A DNA stretch of 64,000 nucleotides, from contig NW_024037060.1 of the NCBI RefSeq assembly GCF_015706575.1, positions 2,728,515 to 2,792,514 of the forward strand, read 5' to 3'. The position numbers and the translations under genes were made by a program. The notes beneath the pieces are model-generated. The model was not told the origin of the DNA. It made no database searches and saw only the letters and a list, made by a program, of their open reading frames with translations. Of the stretch, positions 11,001 to 63,984 are shown piece after piece. Positions within the stretch are counted from its first letter, which is position 1. Every line of letters begins with the position of its first letter. The DNA is from Patiria miniata. Taxonomy: Eukaryota.

Positions 11001-11279
11001 CGAGACAAAATCGAATGCTGCTTGACGTACATGTGTGCTCATGGTTTCAATTTCCTTGAACTGAATATAAAATTGTCTCACAAAAGACGAAATTATACAT
11101 TGGAAGTGCACTATATCGATGTTGATTGACGAATTTCAATATTAGAATCAGTGAATTTGAATGATAAATAGCCTGGAAAACAAACGCTAAAACATACCTG
11201 TGGAAGGGCCATCGCCACCACCTTCTGCACTGGCAACCATCAAGACAACAAGATAGAATACGATTCTAATGTTCGCCAT
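2036..11279 (-). CDS. Gene A: multi-exon gene for a type-I transmembrane protein with a signal peptide, 2 CUB domains, 6 LDLa repeats, a TM helix and a short cytoplasmic tail. Exons on the minus strand: 11198..11279 (ATG, signal peptide MANIRIVFYLVVLMVASAEGG, donor GTATGT); 8959..9369 (CUB1); 8188..8556 (CUB2); 7415..7538 (LDLa); 6688..6813 (LDLa); 5212..5341 (LDLa); 4546..4677 (LDLa); 4226..4351 (LDLa); 3225..3347 (LDLa); 2036..2169 (TM + tail + stop).
   Basis: Six-frame ORFs give CUB-like sequences (…CGKYGSSYFTVETYGRFLTVKFKTD… and …CSLAFTYNSP…TGPAILFGVDASDGIRYNDRLTYSLTTFAVEG). Repeated LDLa signatures C..C…C…CDG..DC.DGSDE..C occur in exon-sized ORFs: [104 protein letters not shown]. The hydrophobic stretch LAGIFIGYIIFAVFVVAITCLI is followed by PKKCKPVDE and a stop. 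Each exon is flanked by a polypyrimidine tract plus AG acceptor and a GTAAGT/GTGAGT/GTAGGG donor, which I checked individually. The signal-peptide exon is hydrophobic and starts with ATG. Exon phases were not all verified. Confidence 0.8.
4040..4130. repeat. Minisatellite of about 4 imperfect copies of gacttgtgaattga, plus a gtctggttgaaa duplication.
   Basis: Read directly; located in a gene A intron. Confidence 0.8.
5455..5962. mobile_element. MITE-like non-autonomous element, family 1, copy 1, about 510 bp, with roughly 20-bp terminal inverted repeats (tataggtttcccggctatt … aatagccggtaaaacctata).
   Basis: TIRs seen directly. An internal palindrome (aattcgtct…agacgaattt) is present. A second copy occurs at 10262..11180. 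The element is AT-rich and has no ORF. Confidence 0.7.
7648..8152. mobile_element. MITE-like element family 2, about 505 bp, with TIR cagggtgaccgt… …acggtcaccctg. It is internally rich in the short repeats aaatctgccaaa and ttctgtcaaa. Located in the gene A intron immediately 5' of the CUB2 exon.
   Basis: TIRs read directly: 7648 cagggtgaccgtacggtcag and 8137 taaaacggtcaccctg. Internal direct repeats. Confidence 0.55.
10262..11180. mobile_element. MITE-like element family 1, copy 2. It has the same ends and internal segments as 5455..5962 but carries an internal insertion of about 450 bp (about 10510..10960). It lies in intron 1 of gene A, within 20 bp of the signal-peptide exon donor.
   Basis: Shared blocks: ccgtcttagctatcgccgaacggcagcattcggagatcgaattcgtct vs ccgtctaagctgttgccgaatggcagcattcagagatcaaattcgtct; ctgaataacac..cggcgtagacgagac.aaatcgaat; ttgaaattgtc.cacaaaagacgaaatta.acattg.aagtgcacta.atcgatgttg; terminal aaatagcc.ggaaaac. 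Confidence 0.65.
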
Positions 11280-14200: not shown

Positions 14201-14450
14201 GACCAATATGTAGAGTATTTACTATACCTTTAAACTCTATAGATACGTTTTTTTAAATTTATATTTATGGATTGACTGCTACAGTTTCATTGAAAAAAGC
14301 TGTAGATTTGCAATACACATTTCTCTTGACAACTGTATTTCAGAAATGGGAACTTTACAAAATAGTAGAGGGCAGCAGTATTTCAGTATTCAGTTCGCAC
14401 CGCGTTGCGATTCTTTTCAAGCACTTTCTTTTTTTGCCCATTAATGCATG

Positions 14451-17400
14451 ATCTTACTCTTCCTCAGGTTTGCATTTCTTTGGGATGAGACACGTGATGC
14501 CAATAATGATGACAGCGAAGACGGCGTATCCACTGAAGATACCAGCTAGCTGACCCGAAGACCAGTACGAGAGGAGCGGAGGTGCTGTAAGATCGATAAA
14601 GGAATAACGAGACAGATGCATCAAAGCAATAATTGTGGCCAAATTCAACTGGAACTACGTACCCTCTAAATGACTGCTCCGTTGTAATAAACACTAACGC
14701 TCACGCCATATCAACTTTCTGTTTTATTGGCTCATTAATTAGAAAGCAACCAAAAGCAAGGTTTAATAGTTAACATCATAACATAAGCTGTATACAAGTT
14801 GCAACGAAAAGAATCTCAGTTTGGGTGGACTGAGATCTGTCAAATAGCAATAAACAAAAGAATCTAAAAAAACCCAAATATAATATAATATAGTATAAAT
14901 AGCCACACAAAATTCCCCTCTCAATGGAACGAATATTTTTTGTTACCGCATAGTACGCTGTTCTCGTCCTCCTTGTTAAGGCATTCAGAGAACCCATCGC
15001 AGAGGGCGGTCTCGTAAACGCATTGAAAACCAAAGCCCGTATCACACTGAACATCAGAGGGGCAATTAGCTGAAAATTAGCGGATCAGACAGGAGGTAAG
15101 GCAAGCGGTGTCAACATGTGTACCGGTCTAAAATCCTTGTAGCGTATCAAACTAGCCCTTAAAAAACTTTGGAATTTAACTTGCAGCTTGTTATCAGATC
15201 TAGCTGTAAAATGTTGTAAAAAACATGTACATTCAACCGACTAGTATCAATATCTTCTTCCTGTTGTAAAAACAATGGGTATTTTTGACCCGACATTCTT
15301 CTGGGTCAAAATGAGGGGTTTTTGGTGTCCAAATGACACTTTCCAGGTTAAATGGCCCGGAAAAGGGACTTCAAGAAGTTTCACGAATCAGGTAAAATCT
15401 GATATGGCTCTTCCAGTGGGATCTGATTTGGGGGCTTTTGTCCGCCTTGCTCTGCAAGTCGTCAACGCTTTCAAGTGGAATATTGCTTTTAAAGAAAACA
15501 CGAGGGCACATTTGGCTATTCATGGTCAGGTATGGAACGTCTTTTAAAATTAGATACTTACTGCATAACCAGGAGGTTTCGTCCGCAGTATTCATGCAAT
15601 CACGCTTAGAATTGCAAATGGCAGAAGACGGCAAACACTCAAAGTCGCCCGTGAAATTGTAGCAATAAAACTTAGAGGGACAATCTGAGTTGAATAAAAA
15701 AGAAATGACTTCAACCCTTCGGTTTAATAGGCACAGCGATATTCATGACGAAAAAGAAAAATGCTCGAGTTCAAAGACTGCTTTCTGGTAATATTCTTAC
15801 AATAACAGACTAACCTGAAGTGGCATCCATCAATATTGGGACAAAATAAATATATAAGCGTAAATCCAGACATTAATTTGAATGATATATGATTTTAATC
15901 GCTACTCTCCAAATTCCAAAGAGTGACAATTCACTCCATTCGAGTGAAGATTCACTCCCACAGTCGGAAACTAGGGACTGGACGTTTTAGAGTGAAATTT
16001 CTTCAATCGTAAAGATCGAGTTTTCACTCGAGCTTCGACTGAAGTGGTTATTTTTCAGACTATTTCAATTGAAAAATTAATGAGAGTGATTTTCACTCTA
16101 AAACGTCTAGTCCCTAATTTCACTCTTGGGAATTTAGAGAGTACATCTCACTATACATTTGGGAAAGTAATGGACCATACAACTTAGGCTATATGGTAAC
16201 CGCCAAAGTAACCCCATAAAATAATAGAATTGATTTACCTTTGCTGCACAATGCAGTGTCTTCGTCTTCATCAAATTTGCAGTTTTGCCAGCCGTTGCAA
16301 ACATTATACTGTTCCGTGCACTGATATTGTCCCCATGTATTCAGGCAATGAAGGCCATCGCAGTCTAAAACAGACGACATATGAAACACAAGAACATCAG
16401 GTGTCACTGTGATTACCTTTAGCATTTTCATCGCATGGCCGATGAAATTTCCTTGCTTTTTGCTGTTATATTTGCATATGTGTATGGATCACCGTTATCT
16501 CCTGTCACCACTGTCGACATCGTTTTAATCAACATTATCCGCATGTATTGGAGTATGCAAACCTTTCTAAATCTTCCTTTCTTTTTTCACTCCTCCACGT
16601 TTGTTGGTAGAGTAGTTCGCACATGCTTTGTGCATTGGTAAACGTTTCCACAATCTATCCTGGAAATTGTATGCGATGACTCCTTACAATATCAAAAGTA
16701 GGGGGAACTTGGACTAACGTTGATTCCATTAATTTAGTTGTTGGTAGAGTAGAGTAGTTCGCACATACTATATTTTATATAATATGGCGTTTCTAAGCTA
16801 GAGGTGCTACATTGGTAATCTTCACAGAAGTAAAGTATGGAAGAAATCTTCACACAAGGGGATATTCTGGGGAAGATGTTCAGGGTATTGCAACCAAATA
16901 CAATGAGCTATGTTTTAGGTAAACTTGCCCGCAATCTTTCCTGGATATATTTTATGAGATCGCTCCTTACAAATACTAAAAGGAGCTCCTTGAAAACTTG
17001 CCCGGGTTAATTTACCCAAGCATGGGTGAAAACTGCAACTACCCAAAATTGGGTTGTCCTTTACCCAATTATTTGGGTTAGAATTTCTGGTAAATTCAAC
17101 CAAAACTTGTGGTCATACCAGACTAAATTTAATTTGGTCTTAACTTATGTTGAATTTACCAGAAATTCTAACCCAAATAATTGGGTAAAGGACAACCCAA
17201 TTTTGGGTAGTTGCAGTTTTCACCCTTGCTTGGGTAAAATTAACCCATACAGGCAATTTTTCAGCGGGGGGTTTGGACTTTTCAACGTTGATTCGATGAA
17301 TTCCGTTTCGGTATACTCACCGCAACGCGCATCGGTCTCATCTTCTCCATTTATGCAATCAGTCACCCCGTCACACATGGACAGCACAGGAACGCATGAG

Positions 17401-20225
17401 TCTGTGGTGCCGTCGTTCAAGACACATTTGACGCCAGAATGACAAACCAAAGCTGAAATAATAATAGTCAAGAAAACTATTGAGGGCACTGTGTCACCTA
17501 AACTCATGATAGGCCGAGTCTGAATTGGTTGGCTATGGCTTGTTTGGACTTACTGCAGTTTTTCTCGTCGCTGCCATCACGACAATCGACGATGCCGTCA
17601 CATTGCTGGGATTTCCGATAGCACGCCTTACCGTCGTTGCACTTGTAGTAATACAGGTAATCACAGACAACTGCCAAGAAGCAGAAAAAATGTAAAATGT
17701 TACCTTGGCTGTCACAGTTTTGTAGGTCTGAGGTTAGCAAGGTAGTTGCTCGAATGGGCCAGGCGGGAACAATATATAATGTAGCCATCTCGTGAGAATA
17801 AAAAAAAAAGACATGTTATTAAAAAGAACTTTGAAAAAGATCGTCTTAAAATACGTTTTTTTGAGATAAGACCACTGTGGGGCATATTCAATTGAGGGCG
17901 CTATTTTTGTTTCCGACAGTTTTAAGGTCATAAGGTGTATGGTTTTGAAGACTGCGTGACCCATCTCACACTCTTTTAGGAAAGTTTAATTAGGGAAGCA
18001 CAAAGACTTCTGGGTCTAACATGAGCTCGTGAAGTGTCGTCCCTGTCCGAAAGAGGGCTGCAAAGAAATAAACCCCTCACCATAGATTTGATAGGGCAGT
18101 GGTTACGTGCGATCGCGAATGAACGAAGTGACAGAATAAGTGAGATTTGATACCCTCTGATGTAGCATCAATGACCATCGCTGCTCCTAGTCCTTTGATC
18201 CGTCCATCCGTCTCAAACCTTATCGTAAGGAGACGTCCCATATTTTGAAACTGGAAATACTCATTGCGGTCGTTTTTACCGCATACGCCGTCGTTGTATG
18301 AACTGCCATCAGCCCAGCTGGAGTTATAGAAAGTTAGGCAGTCCGAACCGGTCACAAAGGCTGTCGATTGAACTCGGGCGTAGAACATATAGTCCGGGTC
18401 GGTGCGAAGGGTCACGGTGCAGTCCATCGGTTTGCCGTTGAGGTCGTCCCGGTTGGTGTGAAGCCAGATGGCCGTATCCGGACGAACCACTGTGTCTAAT
18501 GTACAGTTGTCAGACATGAAGAAGTTAGCTGTGGTGTTTGGAATAAAAGAAAACATCAAAAATCATGATGCGAGAATAAATTTGGATCCATTTTTAAGGA
18601 AGTTAATACTGAGGTGCCGAGTATACTATACACTCTAAAAACAACTTAGTCAAAATATTGACTGGTTTTCCTAGTTATTGAAAATTGACTAGCAATTTAG
18701 TAAAACATGCAAAGTTTCATATACTGTGACTAGAAAAAGTAGTTGGGTTCGACTCGAAATTCAGTTATTGGCATAACTATTTTTCCCAAGTCAATAATAC
18801 TGACTGGAAAAATCTAGTCAGATTGACTGATTTTCAGTTGCACCCAGCTGACCCTGAATGGCTAGTCATATTTAACTGGTTTCTAGTCAAATCTGACTAA
18901 TGCTTTTTTAGAGTGTAGAGTTTTGTGAGGTTTTACTTCATGTCAATGTAAACATGTCGTCACCGTTTCTGACGAAGTGACGAGTTCGTCTAAAGCTGGT
19001 ACGTATAATTTAATGCAACAAAAAAACCCAGATTTTTAATGTTGTCGGGAATCGGCCATCAAGATTTCAATCAAAAACATCGTAATTGTTAAAGTTTTTT
19101 TTTTTTTAACTGTACACGAATAGCAAAGTAGATGCTAAGAGATTTAAAAGATATATATACAGTACCTTCCACCTCAATCGGCGTAATGTCAAACGTGAAT
19201 CCTCGATAACGCAAGTCACCAGAAATGACGGTTGTAAAACGTATCAGAATTGCCGGCCCAGTCGTCAGGAAGCTAGCTTTACCGTAGAAATAGCCACATC
19301 GGTGAAGGTTTAGACTAGCCTCGCTAGTCGCGCCGTCGTATAGCGTCAGACAATCATTATTATTCAACCGGACGAAGTTCCCGCCCCCTCCGACATGGAA
19401 AAGCGCCGGGTTGCGATAGGTGAGTACCAGTGAGCAGTTGACGCCCCGGTCGTAATCTTCGTCAGACTGGGACTTGACAACCACGGAGGAGCCGTAAGAC
19501 ACGATGTCAGTCAGGTCAATGGGATCGTCCTGGCTATATACGCAGGCGCCTTTGTCGTACATGAAATACGTAACTGTAGGAGAGAAAGGGTTGTTACCAC
19601 ATGAACATTTGTCTGGTGCTTCAATTTTGACATGAGTGTTCAAAAAGAAGTTCATTATTCTCGACATGCACTATAGATATACATAACAAGTCGTGGATTT
19701 GGCGGGGATTGGAGTTGTATGAAGTCTAACAAACCAACCCCCACGAAAAAATATACAACATAATGACTAATGTCTTAAAATACTATGAATATCTCAATGA
19801 AAGCCCTGCTTGAAAATCCAGTCACTGTATTTATTTTTGGAAGATTTGTTTTCTCGATAATCAGGCCATGACAATTACTATATACTACCAGGTACTCACA
19901 TTTATAAATACAAATTAAATAAGGCGTCCTCGAAAAAAGAAAATGGTAAAACGTTTTTTTCCTGATTGTGATCAAATATCCTAAAATCAGAAAAAAATAA
20001 GTTTAAGTAGTTTTCAATAATGTTGCTCCCCCACCAGTGCCCGCTTTTCCAAACATTTGTTTGGGCACGAAAATGTTTTGACTTACAATTGTGCTACTCC
20101 TATTCCTGCGTAAAAGTCCGGATACTAATGCCACCCTCAAATAAAAGAACCTCACCTTTAGAACACTCTGACAATCCAGTCGTCATCAGCAAGACAAGAC
20201 TGCAAAAGATTCTGATACCCGTCAT
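14451..20225 (-). CDS. Gene B: tandem paralogue of gene A with a signal peptide, 2 CUB domains, 5 LDLa repeats, a TM helix and a tail. Exons on the minus strand: 20156..20225 ([24 protein letters not shown], donor GTGAGG); 19166..19573 (CUB1); 18154..18528 (CUB2); ~17545..17665 (LDLa); ~17310..17440 (LDLa); ~16250..16380 (LDLa); 15562..15684 (LDLa); 14948..15069 (LDLa); 14451..14583 (TM + tail + stop).
   Basis: The architecture and exon order match gene A. CUB1 aligns with gene A ([34 protein letters not shown] vs SDEYFLYKNGACAHNDGTSIDISSVPLGSSVKV). LDLa motifs are [72 protein letters not shown] and [18 protein letters not shown]. The TM exon [40 protein letters not shown] is about 85% identical to gene A's at the nucleotide level. 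Acceptors (ttacag, cacag, ctcag, tttcag) and donors (GTAAGT, GTATCA, GTACTG, GTAACA) were checked by eye. Confidence 0.8.
15905..16140. mobile_element. MITE-like element family 3, about 236 bp, with 13-bp TIR ctctccaaattcc…gggaatttagagag and an internal long inverted repeat (tagggactagacgttttagagtgaaa … ttttcactctaaaacgtctagtccctaa). Located in a gene B intron.
   Basis: An inverted-orientation copy lies at 21464..21694. Degenerate relatives are at 25640..25830 and 5025..5110 (shared cgagttttcactcgag core). Confidence 0.7.
17001..17243. repeat. Foldback element: a near-perfect palindrome with roughly 100-bp arms (gggttaatttacccaagc…ggtaaattcaac / gttgaatttacc…gcttgggtaaaattaaccc) around a loop of about 40 bp.
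   Basis: The two arms are reverse complements, checked base by base with 1-2 mismatches. It lies about 45 bp 3' of a gene B LDLa exon and gives the spurious plus-strand ORF 17026..17442. Confidence 0.85.
18628..18920. mobile_element. MITE family 4, about 293 bp, TIR tacactctaaaaa…tttttagagtgta. Located in the gene B intron between the CUB exons.
   Basis: A near-identical copy (>95%) is at 55001..55290 in the same orientation, which suggests recent transposition. Confidence 0.8.
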
Positions 20226-47457: not shown

Positions 47458-48678
47458 ATGTCGCAGCTTGGCTCCTCTAACATCACTCTCCTTGTACCAG
47501 GCGGGACGGACACCGGCATAGCTGCCGCGATTGTCGCCTACTCCACCTTCATCCTGGTCCTCGGCGTGCCAGGGAACAGCCTCATCCTCCGCGTTTACTG
47601 GAGCAAGCGACACAAATCCAGCACTCATATTCTCATCATGGCACTCGCCGCGACTGACCTGCTTGTCTGCTTGCTTCGTCCGTACGAGATCACGCGGTTC
47701 ACCCTGGCTCTTGCCGGGGTTAGCGTACCGGAGGGACTTGACGATCGCTGGAACTGCTTCGAGAACATGTGCGTTGGAACCTCGGGGTTCATAACGGCCG
47801 TGATCGCAGTGGATCGCTACGACTGCGTGTGCCGTCCGCACAGACGCCTTCTAACCAAAGGCCGGATTAAAGTAGCCCTGCTAGCGGCCGTCGCTTCTGC
47901 AGTTGCCGCAAATGTTCCGCTTTGCGTTCAAGTGGTAATGGGGCCCGAGGCACCGGCCTCCTTGTATATAATCGTGACCGCTTTCCAAATGGGTGGTTTC
48001 GTTCCTGCGCTTGCCTTGATATTCGTTTGCTACGCAAAGGTACTCCTGAGAATACGTAAGCATGTCCGAGTCGGTACGAGGTCTCTAGGACGTGCGTTAG
48101 GCATGCGACATCAAACTGACGCGGCGAGATCTACGACAATTGCGACGGTGTCAGCACACGTGGGATCGCGGCACTGCAACAACCACACGTCATGTAGCGA
48201 CTTGGGGTCAGTTTGCAACAATAGCCTGAAAACTCCAGATGACTTTCTGAAGAGCATCGTCTCCCAATGGTCCTCCTCTTCAAAACTCAGTACGGAGAAT
48301 AAAAATCGGTACCCAGACTTAGGAAATTCTCCCCATTCTTCGACCCAGACAACGACAAATGACCGCAGCGCACGCAGCGCGACGTCGTCCACACGGCCAC
48401 CTAGGGTGCCAACCTCCGAACGCAGGCAAGCGTCTTCAATGGCGTTTCAACGCAAAACCACCACAATGCTCTTCGTTGTAACGCTAGTGTTTGTTATATT
48501 GTGGATTCCGTATTGGATCGCTCTAGTGTTTGATATCGTGGGTGCCGACAGGCCGTTCGTTCTTAACGCGTTCGTGTTCGCCCTGTATCTGAATAGCGCC
48601 ATTAATCCCGTCATCTACGGTCTGGCAAATAGACGGTTCCGGAAAGACTGCAAAGCTATCCTCTGTAGAATGAGATAA
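47458..48678 (+). CDS. Intronless class-A GPCR, about 406 aa from the ATG at 47458 (the ORF is open from 47401). It is a paralogue of the upstream GPCR with a long (~150 aa) Ser/Thr/Arg-rich third intracellular loop.
   Basis: TM2 has LAATDLL, TM3 has AVDRYDCVCRPHRR (DRY), TM6 has ILWIPYW, and TM7 has NPVIYGLANRRFRKDCKAILC. The C-terminal motif is nearly identical to the upstream receptor's NPVIYGILNRQFRQAFREILC. The N-terminal NIT sequon and hydrophobic TM1 follow MSQLGSSNITLL. Both are in the same orientation and about 1 kb apart, so they are tandem duplicates. Confidence 0.8.
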   Translation: MSQLGSSNITLLVPGGTDTGIAAAIVAYSTFILVLGVPGNSLILRVYWSKRHKSSTHILIMALAATDLLVCLLRPYEITRFTLALAGVSVPEGLDDRWNCFENMCVGTSGFITAVIAVDRYDCVCRPHRRLLTKGRIKVALLAAVASAVAANVPLCVQVVMGPEAPASLYIIVTAFQMGGFVPALALIFVCYAKVLLRIRKHVRVGTRSLGRALGMRHQTDAARSTTIATVSAHVGSRHCNNHTSCSDLGSVCNNSLKTPDDFLKSIVSQWSSSSKLSTENKNRYPDLGNSPHSSTQTTTNDRSARSATSSTRPPRVPTSERRQASSMAFQRKTTTMLFVVTLVFVILWIPYWIALVFDIVGADRPFVLNAFVFALYLNSAINPVIYGLANRRFRKDCKAILCRMR

Positions 48679-51488: not shown

Positions 51489-54400
51489 TCAACCTTTTAC
51501 GTATTTCTCTATAAAATCGAGAAATTGTGCTAGTCTGGAGTAGACCACGACCTGTCTGGGTGCCGAGCAGCTCGGGGTACCGCCTCGACTCACCAGCCCG
51601 ATCTGATACCACTTACCGGCGTCCGAGACGGTAAGAGGTCCGCCACTATCGCCCTGCACGATGTAAGAAAGAACACGGAGATTGAGGTCTTAAAATATCT
51701 GTTAACTTAAAGATGCGATGCCCATCCTTTCACGGAAAATAATTCCTCCTTTCTTTCTTCACGAATTGTTTGAAAGATCTATATTTTGAACGTTACAGAA
51801 TGGTGTATCGAAATCTCTGGATGTGGAATTAAAAATATTAATTTTCAGACAGATAATGGGGGAAAACACACCGTTTTTTTCCCAAATGTTTGCATAACTA
51901 TTAAACAAATGTTGGCCTAAAGGTTCGATCTTATAAGCAAGACCTAATTGTCTAAGACAAATTTGATTAATTGCGTTCTGGTGACTATTGGTGGAAAAAA
52001 AGACCGATGCCTTTAATCTTTCAAACTCCTTTGAATATAACGTGAAGAAATGGAGATCACACCATGTCATTTGCACATCATGATTGAATTACTTAAATAA
52101 TTGTTTTCCACCCTTGACCAACCTTGCAAGAATTTTGCTCCCCGTACTGATTCATGCAGCACACTACTCTCTCGTTGACGTAGGATATATCCTCGAAGTT
52201 CTTGCAGTTCTCCGTGTTGATGATTGTCGCCCTCGCCGTCTGGAGTATGTGAGGTGTATAGCCTACCGAAGAAATAAACGCATTTACGCTTTAATATGTC
52301 GTTTATTTTTTTTTTAACTTGAGAGTAGAAATGAAAGTAATGAAACAGAGGTTCTTTACTAAAAATACCAGGCTGTTCTGATGAATAATTTAAAGTTTGT
52401 GATCAAACACAACCTAATGGTTTAACCCTAAAAGGGCCAGGTTATTTTGACCATCTCTCAGCCGGGGGGGGGGGGGGGGGGGATTCCGCCCCCTAAGATC
52501 TCGGCCATCGAGTGACGAACAATTTTGAAACTTAATACATGCATAGAGCAACACATTATAAACATACCCACGAAATTTCATGACTATAGGTCAAAGTGTG
52601 TTGGAGTTGTGGCTAATTAATTATTCATATGAACGAATGGTAATTCTGCTCTGTGTGCACGACGTATATGGGAAAATTCAGTTTTCGCCGGAATTTTTTT
52701 CCTCCGGCCCTTTAAGGGTTAAGCCACATTAAACAAAGAAAACGTAAGTGAGGCCAGCTGCACTCCAATAGTCTGGCACCATCCCACTCAACAGTTTGCA
52801 ATTTATAAAACAGATTCAGGGAATCCGATTGAAAATGACTTCCTCGTCTAATAAGGTCTATATAGTACAATTATTGAACGCTGTTCTGACTTTAGAGGAG
52901 CAAAGCACCCTTCTCGAAATGATAGCTAGTTCGTCTTTGAGTCAGTTTCACACTTAAAGAAAAAATTCACACATGGCCTTCCTCTCAAATCTTCGATTGT
53001 TTCACCACGTAGCAGCCTTCAATCCGTGTTTATAGAGAGCAATTATGTCGACTCCAACTGAATACGAGGTTTAGAAGACTGAGAAAAGGGATTCCGTTTT
53101 TCTTCCTGAATATTTTATTCGATCGATGCTTCATTGCAAACCTTTCAAAAATATAACTGAGTGACACTCCCACGTGTATAGGCCAGAGAAGCTCATTCAT
53201 ACCGAATGGGACCGTGCCTCCCCAGCCAGAGACGGACGCCGAGGAGCCTTCCGCCGTCAAATGCGAGTCGTTCCTTGGAGGGAGGCAGACTGGCCGGACC
53301 CGGTCGCTGATCGATACGGGAACTTCCAACTCTAGCAAGGCTATGTCGTTGTAGTTGTAGTTGATGTATGAAGGGAAGGGAATACTTCGCTTGCTCTGTC
53401 GGACCTGCTCGTACCCATCATCCGATGTCAGGTTGACAGTGCCGGCTAGAATTTTGGGTTCAAGGAAACCGCTCCTGTGGGGGAAATTATAGTAAAACCA
53501 GAGGATCAGGTTTTATTTCTGTTTCCACCTCTCTGAGAGACATTTATTTCACTCTGGCTAGATATTGGAGTTCCAAAAACCTGCTCCAATGGGGAACTCC
53601 TCGGTGTTTTATTTTAATAACAGAAGAGAGAAAAAAATTGATTTGGAGTTGTTTCCACTTCTCTGGGAGACATTATTGCAATCTAGTGATGTCCATGACG
53701 GATCCAGAAATCGAAAAGGTTGGCTGAGGCTTAAGAGTCGACACACGAACAGACCAAAGGCCTTAGATCCGAGAGTTGCAATGATGTATGACGTTTGTTC
53801 AGAAATGCAAATTTTGGAATTGTTGTCCAGAAATGCGTAACTGTAATGTAGAATAATAAGAAGAACGATAGTGTGCTAAGCCACCCAACCCTCCCCTTTG
53901 TGAAAAAAACCATTAAAATTGGAGGATTCAAGACTGTTAGGTTTAATGACAAGTTGCAGCATTGTATTGATAGGTATACACATGCTCGCACATTGATTGT
54001 ATACGGTAGATTATGAATAAGCATAAGTGAACCTTCTCATATCGTTTGATTTAGATTCGCTCATCAGCATTACAATCGTGTACGATAGGTATTTCTATCA
54101 ATGTTAGGTATATTTTAGCTGGCCGTAGACCCATACATTTATGGCGGTATAAACCGCCTTGTTTATACGGGTCAAAGCTGGCCGGTTGTCATCTTGTTGG
54201 ACAAATGTCGTGATTCAATGGACTTAAGAAAACAAGGGCACTGAAAAGACACGCTGATTCTGGCCAGCCCCGTCGAGATGGATAAAAAAAGAACATTGTT
54301 TAAAGCCTACTCACACGCAATGGCCAGCGGTGATGACCCACTTGTTGGATATGAGGGCGCCCCCACAGTAATGATCGACGTTCTGTCTCTTGGGGTGGCT

Positions 54401-57400
54401 GAGGGAGACCATCCACGGCACCTCCCCTGGGAGGACGTCCCTACCGCTCACTACCCGTGGCATCTGCCCCTGCCTACCGCATTCTATTACACGAAACAAC
54501 AACAGCAAGTAAGTGATTGGTTACTGTGTCACTCTATTGGACGCTCGGGGTACAGCCCAGTAAAAAGGCCAAAATCCGTCGGCCGAGCTCATGAATAAAA
54601 GTTTTACACTCAAGTTATTCTGTATTAGCCAGTTTCGAGAGCCATGGAATTGGAGAACTGGAGACATATGGCACTTTACCTCTGGCCTGGACTTGGGCTT
54701 TCATGCAATTCTGAGCATTTAGGATGTAATTGGGTCCGAAAGTGGCGCTATTTAGGCATGTTGTGGAGGAATCATTCAAAATGGCTACTTTTCCAGTTTT
54801 GGAAGCATCATCGGTTTAAGGGGTGGTCTTCCTTGGATGTGAATTTCTCAAAAAAGTCAACGGTCAACCCACACAAAATTGAACAGAAAATGAAAGATGA
54901 CATGTTGATCATCACTTTTCTGTGCAGCCTAAATCCCTTTGAGAGTTCTGAGTATTTTAAAAAGATTTTTGAAGTATGGGCATTTAGCACTGGTGTCTAC
55001 ACTCTAAAAACAACTTGGTCAAAATATTGACTGGTTTTCCTAGTTATTGAAAATTTACTAGGAATTTAGTTAAACATGCAAAGTTTCATACTGTGACTAG
55101 AAAAAGTAGTTGGGTTCGACTCGAAATTCAGTTATCGGCATAACTACTTTTTCCAAGTCAATAATACTGACTGGAAAAATCTAGTCAGATTGACTGATTT
55201 TCAGTTGCACCCAGCTGACCCTGAATGGCTAGTCATATTTAACTGGTTTCTAGTCAAATCTGACTAATGCTTTTTTAGAGTGTATGGGAATTTAATACAG
55301 GGGTGCATCGCTCGGACGTCATGGCGACTAAGGCCCTGTCTGAAACGGGCGTTGCTGACAACCAACTACGGCTCTTCTCTAAAGCGCAAAACCATGGTCC
55401 TATCCACAAAATATCTGATTTGGGCTCAGTTTGGAATTAGAATTGCACAGAAATTAATTACTTAATTAAAACTACCTGTTGGTTTTTTTTATAAATAGTA
55501 AACAAACCTTGCTCTTCGCAGGATAATCGTATGACCTTCTGAGACGGACAGTTCTCACTAATGGGGACAAAGATATATAATAATAACATCAATGAATGTT
55601 AAAAAAAGAATCCTTTTCATAATAAAACCGACGACTGTGTTATTACATGACAATTATTTTACCGGTACGATGGCTTTAACATTTACAATCAATCAATGGT
55701 CTTGAATCAAGCCACAAAGCTTTATTTTATTTAAACATATAGCCTACATAAAACCTATTGACGGTTAAACTAGTGACATTTCTTTTTAATGGAAAATATC
55801 CCCAAGCAAGTCTATAAAAGCCACTCTTGGCAAAGGGCTAGAAAGAAGAAAAATATGATGAAATAATAATCAGGAAAGCTGGAGGTAGGAATTGATATTC
55901 CTCTTATTAGAGGATAGATCATAGAATGGAGGGACACAGCCACTAGGCAAGGAGTGCCAAGGAGGTACAGAACGTGGAAAAAAGTTATTCACAACGAATT
56001 GAAGAAATGATTCCAAACTTACAAATGTTTCACAATTTTGTAAAGCGCTGGCTTGGGGCCCGGAGATAGAAGTTTCGAAACCTCCTTTTCGTGCAGCATG
56101 TAATACCCGTCTGTGATTGGTCCAAATGTGCTGACGTCCTCAAAGCTAGTTTCATTCATAAAACTGGGACAACAAAAATGACACAAATAATAGTAGAGCA
56201 GGAAGTTTATACACTAAAACCCTTTCCATATTGTCAGAAATGGGAAAAGCTACAACACTGACCCGTAGCCGTATTCATTACATATGACGTCAGCGACGTC
56301 ATCGCTCCAGGTCTGTTCATCGTAACAGAGATACTTCTCATCACCTTCGATGGTAACCATCACCACTCCCTGCTTTCTCTGTGCTGAACCTCCCTGGTTC
56401 TCCAAACGTACTGCAACGAAAGTCCATAAAGGACACACTTCAATGTGATTGCGTCGTTAAAATGAATCTTGATGTTTCTGAACTTCCGTCTTTGCTGTAA
56501 GTTTGGAGGTCTTATAGATTGCGACAAGAAAACCTCTACGGGCAAAATAGACCTTATTCGTGAGGAAGCCATTTTCGATCGTGTTTCCTGAATGCATTAT
56601 ATAAATTATAAACTGTTGTATGGGATGGGTGCCAGACTATTTTATGATTGTAGTGTGTTCCAAGCCTCACTTTCAATTTTTTTTTTACATGTGGCTGAAA
56701 ATATTAGGGTATGTTTAATCACACATTTTTAATTATTCATCAGATCAGACTGGTATTAATTTGTAATGAACTGTTATTTCATTGCTGTCGTTTCCACTCG
56801 CAAGTTCCTAAAATGAAGAGTTTGCCTCGCTTTTAATTGAATATGGCCGACTCGTGGCTCTACGCATGTTGTACATATTTTGAATAAGTACATGTACAAG
56901 GAACACCGAATCACATGCTGTCGTTGTAATGTTGTATGGGGCCTTTTTTTGATCACACACACGAGACAGTATTGCAAAAAAAAAAGAACTTTGATTGACC
57001 AATGTGTCCAAATTTGATCCTGGAAGAACTGATTTAAAGATTTTCAGCACTTTTTTGGCATGAAATAATACTTACGACACTGTATCTCGTCCATGCCGGC
57101 CTTACAGTCTGGTTTCTGGTCGCACCAATTGGCCGACATGATGCATGTATCGTACTTGGATAAACACTGCTTCTGATCCTCTGGGCACACTGTCAGATAC
57201 AAAGCAAAGATTAGTAGGGTAACCAGGAGGCCGTAATGAAGGTTATCTTGCAATACTTGAAAGCAGAGGGTCGGAAGTTCTCCCTTACAGAAACGTCCAA
57301 CACTCCTAGAGCCAATTTCCAGATCCATTTTCTTCAAACTGTATGATTCATAAGTCTGGGGTTTTGTTCGTTATAAAACAAAAAAATACATGTCGAAGCT

Positions 57401-60400
57401 TTCACCTGTTGACAGATCTTCTACAGAAGGCAAGGCCCTGCTTACGATTATGAAGTGAGACCTATTTTGGAAGCCGGATAACTTAGTTTGTTGATCCTAA
57501 GAGAGTATGATTTCGTAATAACTTGCATACATAACAGCAGTTTACTGTAGTATTACCGGAACATAAACTAAAGAGGCAGAGAAGTGTTGCCCAGTGGTTA
57601 GGGTTTTGTGACTTATGATCAGGGGTCAGGGGTTCATGCCTGCTGCTGGAAATAATGTTGTGTCCTTGGGCGAGCGTCCCATCCAGGGGCAACAGAAACA
57701 ATCATTCAAAGGTGCTGGGAAAAACAGGGACAGGGTTTACATAACTTTACAAACTGTGAAAGATTTACAGTTTTCTTACCGTTTTTTATCGACGTTAAAA
57801 CGAGATCAAAAGTCAGAAAGGTCAACTCCGTTTCAAATTTGATCCACATTTTGTTGGCCTTGGACACCAAGGCCTTGTCGACCGGGATGTCGTAGGATTC
57901 CAAGGTCTCGCCCTCGTCGGTGGGATCGTGCCCGTGACCCACCCTCATCCGGTCCCTAGTCGGGTGATCCTTCAGCTTAGTCACAGTGATTCGGGTGTCC
58001 GGCGGACTTGTGATGAACCACAGACAGCTGGACGCAACGCCGGGGATCTCCGGGAAGGTGAGAGTGAAATTCTGGTCGACCGCGGTGAGTTCAATTTGCC
58101 GTTCACCACAGGCTGCGTGAGGATAGGTGAGAAGAATCAGATAGTCAGGTTGGTATAGTGACAACTTTTATTTTATTCGACTTGGATTCGAATATGGATT
58201 GGGTTTCAGTCCCCGTTTTATTTTGTGGGTATTGTCCTCGCACTTTCAACATTTTTCAGGTTTCTGAGCTCAAGTGTCTGTACCCTTTTTAAGAAACATT
58301 TGTGTACATTCTGGGGAGAGTGTGGCCTCGTGACTCATGATCAGAGGGTATGGGGTTCGAATCCAGCTGCTGGCCATATGCTTTGTCATTGGGCAAGCTA
58401 GCCACCTCACCCCTTCGATGGCAGACATTCCATCCAGGGGAGAATATGAATATTCTCTGCCGTTTCATACCAAGGAAACAGGAGATAAACGCAGGCCTGG
58501 TGGGCCAACTTGGCTCCTGGCAGACTATACGCCACTTGTGTACATTACCAAGAAAATAAAAAAATTAAAAAAATGATAAAGACAACATGAAAATGCAGTT
58601 TATTGTGGGTAACTGCAGGTGATTGACGCAATCGTTTACCTTCGTCTTGGGGAGCGATTGCCTGGTCACAGTCAACCTCGTCTTCGCCATCTTTACAGTT
58701 TACGATCCCATCACAAATACCTTGCTCCGGAACGCACTGCCTGTCGGAAGGGCACTGGAACGAGTCCGCAGGACACTCGATGAAAACACCAACTGACAAA
58801 AAAGACAAATGAAAAAAAAAAATAGTAATTGATATTTACCGAACAATGAAATAATCAAGTAACTTATAAAATAATGAATAAATAACAAAAAGGCTTCCAG
58901 TTCAAATTTCCAAATTACTTTAGTTCGTTGGTAGTTGGTTGTCGGTTTGAAGTTAAATGAGCCGGTTCAACTTTCGTAATCGTCTGCGACTTCCTGAACA
59001 GTCTTGTCTGCCTACTGTCATAACTGCCTAACGATCGTCTGTGACAGCCACTGCTTACTAATTGTGTGTAAGTACTTTGATTATTTGCGACTACTATACA
59101 TAACAGCTACCGTTATTTTGTGCTTTCAAATTGGCCGTGACTCCTTAACGATTTCGCAACTGAAGGAAAAATAACTGTTTAAAGATTGAACCGATTGTTG
59201 CTTACCCCATTATTGTTTACGACTGTTAACCGATTGTCTGTGACTGCTCACAAATGATCTGTGACTACATTATACTCACCACAGTAAGCTTCGTCGCTCC
59301 GGTCGGAACAGTCAAAGTATCCGTCGCAGAGACCGTCCGCTGAGATACATTCCAGGTTATCACACTCGTAATAATTACCCGGACAAGCTATATACAGAGG
59401 GTATACATTTAAACGAAACATTACGTCGCCTGTTCATCTTACCAACTTCCAATTCAAGCATGACAGAAAAGAAAACTCCACTCAAAGCTTAAATTAAAGC
59501 CAAAATACTTTTTGTGTTGAATCAATTCACTACGTCAATACTGCAAAAAAATGGCTTTTGCAAACTATCACCGTGGGATATTTATAATGAAAACAAAAGC
59601 AGTTCAAAAGTTTCTTCTCTTTTGCTTTGTTTGGCCGCTAGTATCCAGATAGTTAAACCTTGACAGCAAAGACGAATCACGTACGAGGGCAGTCCTGTTC
59701 ATCACTCCCGTCGCTACAGTCTGCCGAGTTGTCGCAGAAGAACCAAAAAGGAAGGCAAGCCCCGTCATCGCAGGGCCGCTTCCAATTAGAGCAGGCTGAC
59801 AAAAAGGGAGTACAAAAACTATGTCAGTCCGGTCTCCATTGTGCATTCATCAACTAAAGGGTACAATAGACCTTTAAAATGCTGCCACCATTTCAGTCAT
59901 GTTCCCTGAAGCCAATAGCAGTACTGAATGATAATGTTTTTGTGCAAAAAGGAACCAGACTATTTTCCCTTCCAGCCTCGCTTTGGTTACATTGATTTGA
60001 ATGGGAACAAAATTTAAATGGCTGCAACATAATAATGGTCTATAGGATCATTTGGTCTATAGGATCATTTGCTATTTTTTGTCGTTTGAAGCAGCATAAG
60101 TGCTCAAAATCACAAGAAGGGAGCATGACAACTAACTTGTTGAAGTTTCAGCTCACTGGTTACTTTATAGAATGTTGGGGGATTCGTAACCGGATTCCGT
60201 TGCCAAATTTTTCAGTGATTGTTTTCTTCGAAATGATACCATTTCAGGCGGCATAATTTCACAGGGTATTTGGTACCAGTGCTATCTTCTCTTTGAGCAA
60301 GGATTTTTTTTCCGCTAAATACGTGCGTTTTCGGGTGATTGCAAATGCTCCCACGTACCTTTTTTAAACAATATAAGTAAACTCTGAATAGTTTCCGAAT

Positions 60401-63400
60401 GCCAAATACCTCGCATCAAAATAGATTCGAAATAGGTTGCGATCTGCTGAACATAACCACATTTAAGGATGCCTAAATGAACTGGTTATCGGGGAGGCCC
60501 TTCATCAGACTTTTTCCAAGGTTTAACTGTTCATGCGCAGGCCTACACAAGCACCGGGCAATCTCAATTAGTTCTCTTGGCTGGGTTCTCTTGGCTGGGC
60601 ATGTTCCTGAATGTACTCACTGCAGTTCATTTCGTCGCTGCCGTCCGCACAGTCGTTCGTGCCGTCGCATAAATAGTTGAGAGGAACGCACCGCTCACCG
60701 CAGTCAAACTGTCTACCCTCAACGCATGCTGTTGAAATTCGAGAGGGAAAAAAAGAAGTGAATTTTCTAACACAGAATTTTGCTGAACCTTTGCTTTGTG
60801 GGTTTTTGCAGCATCAAACTGATCATCATCTCAAAAATTAGGCATTTGTGGCATTCGACAGTGTTATGATGCCGATTGAAACACTGATTTTATTTGGACA
60901 ATTTTCTTGTTTTAATATCAATCCTGATAAGTCTCGAATAAGATCTGGGGTGCTTTTCACTTTCTCGAACAATGCTACAACGTTTGTCAAATTTTTGGCA
61001 ACGTGTGTTTGCCAAAAACGTTGGTGAACGTTTGGAATGGTCCAATGTACCGTTTGCCAAAAATGTTGGTGAACGTTTGCAACCAAGGCGAACGCTTTTC
61101 CTGAGTCATTTGCTATGTTTTCCAAAATTGCAGACACACACAATGAAGGCCATGATAAATAATGTCGAGGCTGAATTCTCAGATTTCTAGATTCGCAGTA
61201 AGTTCAGACAATATTAGCAACATTTTACTTCCAGTAAAATTTGAATGAGTTTTCGAATTTTCAAAGCTGCTTTATTCAAACAGTCACGCTTGAAGGATTT
61301 CCTTACAGGGCGCCGCCATTTTGGAAACATTTTTTTTCATCGAGAGGGCGGCCTTTAGCTTACCACAATTGACCAGCTCATCAGCATGGTTACCACAATC
61401 GTTGAAGCTGTCACAAACGAGCAACTCGTTCAAGTAGATGCTGCTGTCCTCGTGACATAAAAACGCTGCACGGTAACACACAGATAAACAAAATGCCATG
61501 AAAACAAAAACGCCTTGAGCACAGTCTAGTTTTCAACTTGTTTAAATTTAAAATTTCAGAATACAAGGGCGGGAGCGTGTGGAATTATTATGCTGAGTTC
61601 TTCGTTGATACATGTAACATGAATAATGTTAAAACCTTTCTGTCGCCTGTCACTGCGCCGTCATACTGTGATCCTTGCTAAAATCTGGATTACTATTTAA
61701 CTGACGATAGTTCGTGGAACGTGGCGGGTATACTCTTATGGATCGGATGTGATCCTGAAAGATTTAGCCTTCAGACCGTATCAAGTTTTGCCAGGAAAAA
61801 CCCAATTCAACACTGCATGTTCATGTATATCATTTGAAAAATTAAAAAGGTTTTACTGATTGCCAAATACTGTGGAATTTGATAAAAATGTGAGAAATGT
61901 GTTTCGGGGCTTGTCAACAATTGAGCGGCATCATCTATGGTGACATGGTTCTCCCCTCCCAAAAACCAAACATCGACAACGACAGAAGAGGAACTTAACC
62001 CCACGGCTACAGTGCAAAGTAGTATTTAGGTAAAACTCTTGACAAGTTTATTCGCAAAAAGAGTGACGAATCGATGATCTACTAACTGCAGTTATCTTCA
62101 TCAGTGTCGCAATCGGGGTAATCATCGCAGACAGCGACCCGGTGAATGCAGGATCCATCCCCGCACTTGACCTGGTCGTAATACGGACACACTGAAACAA
62201 AAATGGAATAAAACAAATTCAACATGTCAACAGGTGGTCCTTGACGTCGACAATGGCATTTTAGCACATAATGTTGTCCGCAAAAAGTGACTATAATTCC
62301 AACAAGTTCTTTGAAGATATGATTTTTTCTCCTCCAAATCTGACATATGACATATACAGCGTGTCTAAAAAAAAAGGTCCCTCTGATAGACTGCTAAATT
62401 AATTCCAAAATCAAGTATTATTCTCAATTTAGTGTTCAGATTAAGAAAGCCCATTTAATTTTGTAACTTCTGTGAAAATTTCATTGGTCTCGCTTCATTG
62501 ATTTTGAATACACAGTCTATTATGTAACAGCAGTGCTTTTCAGCCCATTCCAAGTTTGCAGGTGGAAGGATGTGCAGGAGGACAATAAAAGTTTACAAGC
62601 TGGACATTGAAAAACAAACTATAAGTGGAACACACCCTGTGAAAGCAAACACGACCAGTGGAACTGAACTTTGATTAGTTTTCATTTAAAAAAAGTAAAT
62701 GAACTTGACTTTAGTTACTTAATAACAAAAACAAGAACCCAGTTGTTGAAATAAAAGTGAAGCATGGAATAAGGTATGGTATGTCTGTAGTGTGCATTTC
62801 TTTTTTTCATGCATTTCTTTTTATCAACTTGGAATGGGCCGGAAAGCACTGCTGTTACATAAAAGCCTGTGTATTCAAAACCAATGAAGCGATTTTCACA
62901 GGAACTACAAAATTAAGTGGGCTTTCTAAAAATGTAAACTTAATTGAGTATAAAACTTGATTTTGGTAATTATTCTGTGGTCTATGAGAGGGACATTTTT
63001 TTTGGGACACGCTGTATTTTAACAGAAAAAAACTACTTTTTCTTTCTTTGGACGTCAACAACCCGCTACAAAAGGCTTTTATTTTGCGAGTAGACTGGTT
63101 CCCTCCCCGGGCCACATTATCGATGCCGAAAGAGGGTGGGAGCTAGGCTGGCGGAAAATGAATTATAGTCGAGTTGAAAATAATTTCGACGTTTTTTGAA
63201 GTAATTCTTTCATTACTAAACGTGGGCTGATTTTGTTTAAGTCGATGTCTCATTCAAAGTGAATAAACTTTTTATTGCTAAAAAAATGATATTTAAAAAC
63301 ACAAGCTATAGACCATTATCATGTTGCGGCCATCTTGATTTTTCCCCATTCAAATCAACGTAACCAAAGCGAGGCTGGAAGGAAAAATAGTCTGGTTCCC

Positions 63401-63984
63401 TTTTGCACCAAAAAGTAATCATTCAGCACTGTTATTGGATACAGGGAACACGCCTGAAATGGTGGCAACATGATAAATGCCTATTTTGCGAGAAGGAACT
63501 CAAAAATAGTACGGACAGTATATAACTTAAACCCAAGAAATAACATGATATATCATCGCAATGCAATCCAATTTGATGTAAATTTCTATTAAATTCTAAG
63601 TTATACATTCAACCACAATATCTTGTTGTCAATGCAAGAGGGTGGTCACGTGATTGCACGTCATAAAGGTCAACAGAGGGGTGTGCAATCGACTGACTCA
63701 CCTTCGCACTCCAGTTCGTCTTTTTCGTCGTAGCAATCCGCGAAGCCGTCGCACAGTCGGGTGTTCGGAAAGCATCCGCCCACGTCGCAGAGGAATTCGT
63801 CATCGCCGCAAGTCTCTGCAATCAACCGGGGAAAGGAAGAAGACAACAAAGAAAAGATTTGTTGAGGTCGGTTTCTGTTGCTATCGAGTCCTTTTGCGAT
63901 CGAGTATACGGTGCTGAGGTAATGAACCAAGCTAGTGCTAAGGTCTTGTTGGTAGCGTTCTTTTGGGTTTCTTTTTGCATTCAA
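51489..63984 (-). CDS. 3' portion of a mosaic (probably type-II transmembrane or secreted) trypsin-like serine-protease gene; its 5' end lies beyond the window. Approximate exons on the minus strand: LDLa 63700..63830; LDLa 62095..62205; LDLa-like 61330..61480; LDLa 60610..60730; LDLa 59690..59800; LDLa 59285..59395; LDLa 58630..58800; CUB 57840..58130; LDLa 57080..57200; SRCR 56250..56440; protease His exon ~54330..54470 (…[19 protein letters not shown]…[20 protein letters not shown]); Asp exon ~53195..53470 (…[28 protein letters not shown]…SVSGWGGT); 52096..52262 (…[34 protein letters not shown]); Ser exon 51489..51660 ([56 protein letters not shown]).
   Basis: The canonical S1-family motifs TAGHC, DIALL and GDSGGP are in collinear exons, with the expected GWG and disulfide cysteines. 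CUB signature: [43 protein letters not shown]…YDIPV…[15 protein letters not shown]-like: [50 protein letters not shown]. Multiple LDLa modules: [115 protein letters not shown]. The stop TGA is the complement of 51489..51491. Confidence 0.85.
55001..55290. mobile_element. MITE family 4, second copy, in an intron of the serine-protease gene.
   Basis: Near-identical to 18628..18920 along its whole length, including the TIRs. Confidence 0.8.

Follow-up and report, generated by a model that had tools for sequence, protein, structure and literature searches.

The 64,000-nucleotide stretch of Patiria miniata DNA analyzed here (contig NW_024037060.1; referred to as the window) very probably contains the 3' part of a gene for a 1293-aa membrane-anchored serine protease of the TTSP class whose modular stem was shuffled together long ago, and not from its neighbors, next to two separate genes, A and B, that are whole-gene tandem duplicates. 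The protease gene is already annotated and is conserved in sea stars; it is a real but ordinary member of the corin/enteropeptidase-type mosaic serine proteases. We found no mention of this P. miniata gene in the literature.

Structure of the protease gene and its product

The minus strand between positions 63815 and 51489 comprises 16 GT-AG exons that encode seven LDLa modules, a CUB-like domain, a further LDLa module, an SRCR-like domain and a trypsin domain. The spliced model matches the P. miniata database protein "atrial natriuretic peptide-converting enzyme-like" (P0141, 1293 aa) at 100% identity over residues 518-1293, and the model's reading frame is unbroken, with canonical splice sites in 16 of 16 exons. 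Since the first exon in the window has a phase-1 acceptor and no start codon, the gene's 5' end must lie beyond the window, as a first-pass annotation of this DNA had stated. Using the orthologous Acanthaster planci locus as a proxy for the 5' exon structure, we infer that the window portion represents the 3' 60% of the gene, with 16 of 24 coding exons. The same annotation had placed the gene at 51489-63984; the gene itself holds, but the upper coordinate is merely the edge of an open frame, and the coding sequence begins at 63815. Its observation that each LDLa repeat sits on its own exon is borne out for all eight modules of the protease, each of them on a phase 1-1 exon:

63702..63815, minus strand: LDLa-4 exon, the first in the window (phase 1-1, 114 nt; as long as A. 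planci exon 9)
62087..62191, minus strand: LDLa-5 exon (phase 1-1, 105 nt)
61364..61465, minus strand: LDLa-6 exon, a 4-Cys variant in which the C1-C3 disulfide is missing (phase 1-1, 102 nt; PF00057 22.2 bits)
60621..60728, minus strand: LDLa-7 exon (phase 1-1)
59685..59795, minus strand: LDLa-8 exon (phase 1-1)
59280..59387, minus strand: LDLa-9 exon (phase 1-1)
58640..58792, minus strand: LDLa-10 exon plus short linker (phase 1-1)
57780..58112, minus strand: divergent CUB exon, the second CUB of the protein, without the second disulfide (phase 1-1, 333 nt)
57076..57189, minus strand: LDLa-11 exon (phase 1-1)
55508..56410, minus strand: SRCR-like (SRCR_2) exons 56410-56263 (phase 1-2), 56163-56023 (2-2) and 55557-55508 (2-1)
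51489..54483, minus strand: S1 domain in four exons, 54483-54315, 53474-53203, 52262-52123 and 51653-51489, with the stop codon at 51491-51489

The donor of the middle SRCR exon at 56023 (GTAAGT, phase 2) is annotated and conserved and matches P0141. Another donor, at 56107 (GTATTA, phase 2), was rejected; the short exon that it yields gives Pfam only half of an SRCR domain.

The mosaic of LDLa, CUB, SRCR and serine protease domains described in the first-pass annotation was confirmed. In the spliced model, Pfam recognized the trypsin domain (E = 1.5e-49) and Ldl_recept_a in seven stretches (E = 8.8e-44). LDLa modules (PF00057) are about 40 residues long and possess six cysteines and a C-terminal acidic Ca2+-binding cluster. 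Seven of the eight modules in the window are of this type, and the eighth (61465-61364; 22.2 bits, E = 1.7e-4) has four cysteines and lacks C1 and C3, a variant that is kept in three sea stars and in the sea urchin Diadema. The CUB domain encoded in the window scores below the Pfam threshold when taken alone (14.4 bits versus a cut-off of 21.4). We nevertheless read it as a CUB domain because the Diadema orthologue has a bona fide CUB (57.8 bits) at the corresponding position, and because a profile built from four sequences of this domain matches a CUB domain of PCPE-1 (E = 5.5e-5). The SRCR domain is of the short SRCR_2 type and is barely at threshold in the full protein (residues 960-1049; 27.3 bits versus a cut-off of 27). 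When compared with solved structures, the SRCR-plus-protease unit of hepsin aligns across query residues 19-360, and the SRCR-like domain sits directly N-terminal to the S1 protease, as it does in the corin subfamily.

As judged from the database protein, the 5' part of the gene outside the window encodes the cytoplasmic tail, the signal-anchor transmembrane (TM) segment, a HYR domain, three LDLa modules, one Frizzled (Fz) domain and one CUB domain. The predicted architecture of the whole protein is consequently cytoplasmic tail, signal-anchor TM, HYR, three LDLa, Frizzled, CUB, seven LDLa, CUB, LDLa, SRCR-like and S1 protease. Pfam analysis of P0141 reported HYR, Fz (residues 276-378, 52.6 bits), CUB, nine scored LDLa stretches, SRCR_2 and Trypsin, while a regular-expression count gives 11 LDLa modules in total; a single Fz domain is also present in both sea-star orthologues. 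P0141 possesses one hydrophobic segment (residues ~50-73, Kyte-Doolittle mean 3.74) that is preceded by the basic stretch KSPRFFKLK, and no N-terminal signal peptide. The cytoplasmic tail followed by a single signal anchor that typifies TTSPs is thus found in the database protein, in a region lying outside the window. Neither SEA nor MAM domains were matched by Pfam at E<=0.01 in P0141, P0142 and P0143.

Age of the stem and the neighboring genes A and B

A regular-expression scan and a six-frame LDLa HMM scan put the number of LDLa-coding segments in the window at exactly 19. All are minus-strand, with eight at 57.0-63.8 kb (the protease), five at 14.9-17.7 kb and six at 3.2-7.5 kb. The latter two clusters belong to genes B and A, both of which are real and built of LDLa and CUB modules, as had been noted before:

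2039..11279, minus strand: gene A, 583 aa, identical to P0121; signal peptide 11279-11198, CUB 9369-8959, CUB 8556-8188, TM and 12-aa tail 2169-2039
7537-7415, 6813-6688, 5341-5213, 4677-4546, 4351-4226 and 3347-3225, minus strand: the six LDLa exons of gene A; all internal exons phase 1-1
14454..20225, minus strand: gene B, 534 aa, identical to P0124; signal peptide 20225-20156, CUB 19573-19166, CUB 18528-18154, TM 14584-14454
17670-17554, 17452-17321, 16364-16239, 15684-15562 and 15069-14947, minus strand: the five LDLa exons of gene B; all internal exons phase 1-1

A module-wise comparison shows A and B to be colinear; they are old whole-gene tandem duplicates and form a CUB-CUB-LDLa5/6-TM family separate from the protease. 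Full-length relatives were recovered by homologue searches only from sea stars, and the TM helix of the family is unusually conserved. Among their CUB domains, Pfam recognized just the second one of A (32.6 bits), and the first domain, searched as a sequence profile against the PDB, returned no match. In an AF2 model (pLDDT 72.7), the N-terminal domain pair adopts a tandem CUB fold whose best Foldseek match is CUB1-CUB2 of PCPE-1 (E = 3.7e-12), with neuropilin a1a2 and Neto2 ranking next; it is through this structure prediction alone that the first domain is identified as CUB-like. In the LDLa modules of A and B, which have a form of their own, C5 and C6 lie further apart. Their scores are mostly between 20 and 31 bits and mostly below the Pfam threshold, with the third module of B at 9.7 bits.

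The presence of three such genes within 64 kb had led the first-pass annotation to suggest local exon shuffling or duplication of a module cassette; recent copying of LDLa and CUB exons between the protease, A and B in this way is an explanation that we now regard as very improbable. The three genes do lie on one strand, an A. planci gene of the A/B family and the protease orthologue are found on the same 889-kb scaffold, DF978686.1, and the exons are capable of being shuffled, all 19 LDLa and all five CUB exons of the window being of symmetric phase 1-1. This is the phase pattern that had been predicted, but phase 1-1 symmetry is shared by extracellular modules of metazoans in general (PMC7259759) and therefore cannot distinguish local from ancient shuffling. 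The modules themselves speak against a local origin. We compared them with an outgroup of LDLa modules from 15 unrelated proteins of other taxa, all of them species other than P. miniata, and found that those of the protease are less similar to the A/B modules (mean normalized score 0.246) than to these unrelated ones (0.315; Mann-Whitney p = 4.7e-13). With orthologues removed, their nearest neighbors are modules of lion LRP2, a hemichordate and amphioxus, and not those of A or B, whose LDLa form is distinct. Moreover, blastn detected no similarity between the protease, A and B loci except for interspersed transposon-like repeats. The proposal thus fails on the very point that its authors had named as refuting it, namely that the modules of the three genes are no more related to each other than to LDLa modules elsewhere in the genome. 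Physical clustering of LDLa/CUB genes alone is accordingly no sign of recent module exchange.

Also at odds with a recent local origin is the conservation of the array in other echinoderms. Orthologues of the protease are present in A. planci (75% identity) and Asterias amurensis (62%; 1293 and 1304 aa, respectively) and, as a partial sequence, in Diadema setosum; a query spanning the CUB domain to the protease additionally found a 65% match on an unannotated sea-star contig (GCA_014845345.1), together with arthropod proteases. The A. planci gene possesses 24 coding exons, of which exons 9-24 equal the 16 window exons in length and phase, and its exons 3-17 (HYR, Fz, two CUB and 11 LDLa) form a series of 15 consecutive exons that are all 1-1. 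For each LDLa module of the P. miniata protease, the nearest neighbor is the position-matched orthologue in Acanthaster or Asterias (0.59-0.92), and the module order is partly colinear in sea urchin. Classical phase 1-1 exon shuffling most likely put the stem together before the asteroids radiated and, in the case of LDLa-5 to LDLa-9, before the asteroid/echinoid split. With fifteen one-module 1-1 exons in a row whose lengths are frozen between two sea stars, the protease gene is a clean textbook case of this process; its significance beyond annotation is small.

Catalytic domain and expected specificity

The membership of the protease in the enteropeptidase/matriptase/TMPRSS class, proposed from domain order, is upheld by its catalytic region, whose best matches among solved structures are enteropeptidase (5.4e-39), TMPRSS2 and hepsin (~1e-38), and whose scores are similar for enteropeptidase, TMPRSS2, hepsin and kallikrein. 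It carries the activation site QMPR/VVSG, in line with the Arg/Lys | Ile/Val-Val-Gly-Gly type of motif of TTSP zymogens, and the His/Asp/Ser triad is intact (AGHC, NDIALL, GDSGGP). A cysteine in EQECG upstream of the activation site and another in RPVCLPP are available for a tethering disulfide. The S1 pocket, in contrast, is not the trypsin-like one of the corin subfamily (Asp189, Gly216, Gly226); it consists of Asn189/Gly216/Val226, and where enteropeptidase has Asp189 and Gly226 the alignment shows Asn and Val. The Asn189/Val226 pocket is common to three sea stars, Diadema has Ser189, and EQNSCKGDSGGP is conserved in 3/3 sea stars.

Since Asn189/Gly216/Val226 replace a pocket with Asp189 and Gly226, the enzyme would be expected, from these three pocket residues, to prefer non-basic residues at P1; with such a preference it should not auto-activate. 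By analogy with its family, the protease would be made as a membrane-anchored zymogen that an Arg-specific convertase cuts at QMPR/VVSG, after which the catalytic domain would stay tethered to the stem through the disulfide between the pre-site cysteine and that of RPVCLPP. The long stem, with its Ca2+-binding LDLa modules, CUB and Fz domains, may recruit and position substrates or partners. A non-basic S1 pocket behind an Arg activation site would place the enzyme downstream of another convertase; that this echinoderm "corin-like" enzyme is a functionally distinct TTSP which cuts after non-basic residues, with the CUB-CUB-LDLa-TM neighbors A and B as possible membrane partners or substrate-presenting co-receptors, is an idea to which we assign little probability. 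The conserved Asn189/Val226 pocket argues against presuming a corin-like Arg specificity in studies of echinoderm peptide hormones.

One might take the divergent features of the locus (the sub-threshold CUB, the 4-Cys LDLa module and the unusual S1 residues) as signs of a decaying, non-functional copy, either a pseudogene or a pseudo-protease. This is extremely unlikely in view of the open frame, the canonical splicing and the intact triad, the 75% identity to A. planci with identical exon lengths, and the conservation across species of the 4-Cys module and Asn189 themselves.

Relationship to known membrane proteins and proteases

In layout the A/B family resembles NETO1/2 (type I membrane anchorage, a pair of CUB domains at the N terminus, then LDLa and TM), and Neto2 is among its structural matches. 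It differs through its five to six divergent LDLa modules, where NETO has a single one, and through a cytoplasmic tail of ~12 residues, where that of NETO is substantial; NETO was absent from the A/B homologue search, and no sequence-level orthology was seen. Matriptase and matriptase-2 (ST14, TMPRSS6) are, like the P. miniata protease, TTSPs with CUB and LDLa domains in the stem, and ST14 is among the homologue matches. Their order is SEA-CUB-CUB-LDLa x3-4 directly before the protease, without SRCR and Fz, whereas here Pfam matched no SEA domain and the modules are ordered differently; we rejected this assignment on domain content. Automated names such as "ANP-converting enzyme-like," "LRP2-like" and "ST14 homolog" claim more than is known.

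With enteropeptidase (TMPRSS15), the top solved-structure match, the sea-star protein has the C-terminal CUB-LDLa-SRCR-protease order in common, and one could envisage it as an enteropeptidase-like starter of a digestive zymogen cascade. Enteropeptidase cleaves after Lys, whereas the pocket found here is non-basic and lacks Asp189; SEA and MAM are missing by Pfam, Fz, HYR and many more LDLa modules are present instead, and the E-value barely beats those of TMPRSS2 or hepsin. Such a role is therefore distinctly improbable.

Because the full protein also contains HYR and Frizzled domains, the closest named architecture is that of corin, which refines the resemblance originally drawn to enteropeptidase, matriptase and TMPRSS proteases while leaving the TTSP class unchanged. 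Both proteins combine a type II anchor and an Arg activation site with Frizzled, multiple LDLa modules and an SRCR-like domain right before the C-terminal S1 protease (PMC9138375). Together with the NCBI name, this might suggest a true functional orthologue of vertebrate corin, i.e., an Arg-specific pro-hormone convertase for a natriuretic-peptide-like precursor. We consider this unlikely, since the pocket carries Asn189 and Val226 where that of corin is trypsin-like, the protein shares only 28% identity with Anolis corin over about half (~49%) of the query, and the catalytic domain is equally near to enteropeptidase, TMPRSS2, hepsin and kallikrein. Corin has two Fz domains flanking its LDLa clusters, in contrast to the single one of the sea-star protein, which possesses HYR and two CUB domains in addition. 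The number of LDLa modules, previously thought to be unusually high, is not exceptional: the 11 of the sea-star protein lie between the eight of corin (PMC9138375, Fig. 1 legend) and the 12 of a Lingula corin.

Gene model and domain architecture of the protease

In the window, which is metazoan DNA with a G+C content of about 40%, a six-frame regex scan and a purpose-built LDLa HMM located exactly 19 LDLa-coding segments, all of them on the minus strand:

57.0-63.8 kb, minus strand, LDLa group of 8 segments
14.9-17.7 kb, minus strand, LDLa group of 5 segments
3.2-7.5 kb, minus strand, LDLa group of 6 segments

By reading the splice sites around each LDLa segment, we obtained a protease model of 16 GT-AG exons that spans 63815 down to its stop codon (51491-51489) and is matched by the Pfam families Trypsin (E=1.5e-49) and Ldl_recept_a (E=8.8e-44). 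A homologue search with the spliced model recovered P0141, a P. miniata protein of 1293 amino acids named 'atrial natriuretic peptide-converting enzyme-like' by NCBI. Since the model (with the SRCR middle exon at 56163-56023) exactly equals residues 518-1293 of P0141, the gene is one that had been annotated before, and its 3' 60% lies in the window. The mosaic LDLa/CUB/SRCR/trypsin protease that the first-pass annotation had read from the DNA is confirmed by both the model and the P0141 match. Inside the SRCR middle exon (56023-56163, minus strand) there is a further GT in phase (GTATTA at 56106); this hypothetical splice, if used, would remove 28 residues and keep the frame.

We derived the full-length architecture from Pfam searches on P0141, module counting and a hydropathy scan. 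The part encoded before the window comprises, in this order, a cytoplasmic tail, a signal-anchor TM segment, HYR, three LDLa modules, Frizzled and CUB:

P0141 about residues 50-73, signal-anchor TM (hydropathy scan)
P0141 76-158, HYR (Pfam)
P0141 276-378, Frizzled (Pfam)
P0141 412-507, first CUB (Pfam)

Within the window follow seven LDLa modules, a divergent CUB, a further LDLa, SRCR_2 and Trypsin. Of the LDLa modules in the window, the third (61465-61364, minus strand) is a four-cysteine variant, with exactly the C1-C3 disulfide pair gone; three sea stars, Acanthaster and Asterias among them, and the sea urchin Diadema setosum share it in the matching position. By simple pattern matching, hemichordate LDLa proteins commonly contain similar four-cysteine modules. 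The in-window CUB scores only 14.4 bits alone in Pfam; in Diadema, the domain that aligns with it is a bona fide CUB in the corresponding position, and a joint profile of this domain and its relatives matches the CUB domains of PCPE-1, spermadhesin, neuropilin and MASP.

Intron phases, genes A and B, and relationships of the LDLa modules

In the window, the protease's CUB exon and each of its eight LDLa exons are phase 1-1, as is every internal exon of the neighbouring CUB/LDLa genes A and B. When we mapped P0142, the orthologue from A. planci, onto its genomic locus (L002), 24 coding exons were found; exons 3-17 (HYR, three LDLa, Fz, CUB, seven LDLa, CUB, LDLa) are all 1-1, and exons 9-24 exactly equal the 16 window exons in length and phase. 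The first-pass annotation, which suggested local exon shuffling or cassette duplication among the three genes, had named symmetrical 1-1 phases as a result that would support shuffling. The phases are indeed symmetrical but do not carry that conclusion, since PMC7259759, citing Patthy (1999) and Franca et al. (2012), describes phase 1-1 as a generic signature of metazoan extracellular modules. They confirm ancient assembly by shuffling and are mute on local or recent events.

All pairs were compared among 190 LDLa modules, taken from the three genes of the window, from relatives of these and from 15 unrelated LDLa proteins. For each protease LDLa, the closest module is the one at the matching position in A. 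planci and Asterias (normalised pairwise score 0.59-0.92), and for several the position-matched Diadema module comes second. With orthologues excluded, modules of lion LRP2, hemichordates and amphioxus come nearest, not those of A or B. Mean similarity of the protease to A/B modules (0.246) is significantly lower than to the outgroup (0.315; p=4.7e-13), the latter drawn from the 15 unrelated proteins of other taxa rather than from other parts of the P. miniata genome. In DNA, interspersed repeats are all that the loci have in common, apart from the TM exon of A and B. Local shuffling among the three genes is thus contradicted; with an outgroup from other species, the protease modules show the very relationship that the first-pass annotation had named as counting against its proposal. 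Module similarity within a gene (0.286) is unremarkable as well, so that recent internal duplication has not taken place.

Genes A and B encode type I membrane proteins with a signal peptide, two CUB domains, six (A) or five (B) LDLa modules, a TM segment and a 12-residue tail. The gene A model (583 aa) is 100% identical to the protein P0121. The two proteins are colinear module by module with 39% identity; their scaffold also carries a third paralogue, and the homologue search found full-length relatives in P. miniata and Acanthaster only; A and B are products of whole-gene tandem duplication. Their LDLa modules are divergent (mostly 20-31 bits, one at 9.7 bits). The first CUB gave no match with Pfam or PDB sequence profiles; an AlphaFold model of the CUB pair (pLDDT 72.7) matched structures with tandem CUB domains, PCPE-1 best (E=3.7e-12), followed by neuropilin a1a2 and Neto2. 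The TM/short-tail exons (2039-2169 in A, 14454-14584 in B, minus strand) are 85% identical in DNA, the remainder being without blastn similarity, and their peptide ...SYWSSGxLAGIFxGY... is near-invariant in all four family members, Acanthaster included. This suggests either gene conversion or constraint from an interaction within the membrane. For genes A and B, NCBI uses the misleading product names 'LRP2-like' and 'suppressor of tumorigenicity 14 homolog'; these 534-583-aa CUB-CUB-LDLa5/6-TM proteins (2039-20225, minus strand) have neither protease nor YWTD/EGF parts.

Other neighbouring genes and repeats

Two intronless rhodopsin-family GPCR genes lie downstream of the protease in tail-to-tail orientation, and a multi-exon VIT-domain gene (about 22989-35100, minus strand) is situated between these and gene B:

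45399-46445, plus strand, GPCR ORF (7tm_1, E=4.5e-60)
47458-48678, plus strand, GPCR ORF (7tm_1, E=2.6e-30)
32042-32467, minus strand, VIT domain exon (E=3.4e-18)

Since the A. planci orthologue also has a 7tm_1 gene at this place beside it (L002 51344-52435), the protease-GPCR microsynteny is conserved. A SGIYFGD-like motif (34755-35096) hinted at a PARP4-type identity of the VIT-domain gene, which Pfam did not confirm; its Pro/Glu-rich open exon of 457 codons (22989-24362, minus strand) had zero Pfam matches.

A 289-bp interspersed repeat, probably a young mobile element, is present in 96.9% identical copies in a protease intron (54998-55284) and in the inter-CUB intron of gene B (18629-18917). 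A second family is present in three copies (82-87% identical) with a short ORF (MLPPFQ.CSL...): two in protease introns, oriented oppositely to each other (63308-63477 and 59866-60043), and one in the VIT-domain gene region (24937-25106).

The catalytic domain and comparison with known proteases

In its catalytic region the protease comes closest to the transmembrane serine proteases of type II (TTSPs) enteropeptidase, TMPRSS2 and hepsin (all about 1e-38). The first-pass annotation was right about the protease class as well as about the exon structure. The catalytic triad is intact, the activation site reads QMPR|VVSG, and the Cys residues required for tethering are present. Alignment to enteropeptidase places Asn at Asp189 and Val at Gly226; the pocket (52123-52262 and 51489-51653, minus strand) thus reads Asn189/Gly216/Val226 in place of Asp189/Gly226, with Arg for Trp215. 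EQNSCKGDSGGP is kept in three sea stars; the orthologues from Acanthaster and Asterias also have Asn189, the Diadema one Ser189. Since a pocket without Asp189 is combined with an Arg activation site, self-activation is unlikely. From knowledge of the family, we infer that the protease would be made as a membrane-anchored zymogen and activated by an upstream Arg-specific protease, that the activated enzyme may prefer a non-basic P1 residue, and that the LDLa/CUB/Fz stem might recruit substrates or partners.

The protease is an unremarkable addition to the TTSPs, already in RefSeq as a predicted protein, and only its conserved non-trypsin S1 pocket and its HYR/Fz/CUB combination are mildly surprising. 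Its LDLa number had been regarded as unusually high, which proved wrong: the full-length protein has 11 modules, compared with eight LDLR repeats in corin, which besides its protease also has two Fz domains and one scavenger-receptor-like domain (Fig. 1 legend of PMC9138375), and with 12, counted in the same way, in a brachiopod 'corin' among our homologue matches.
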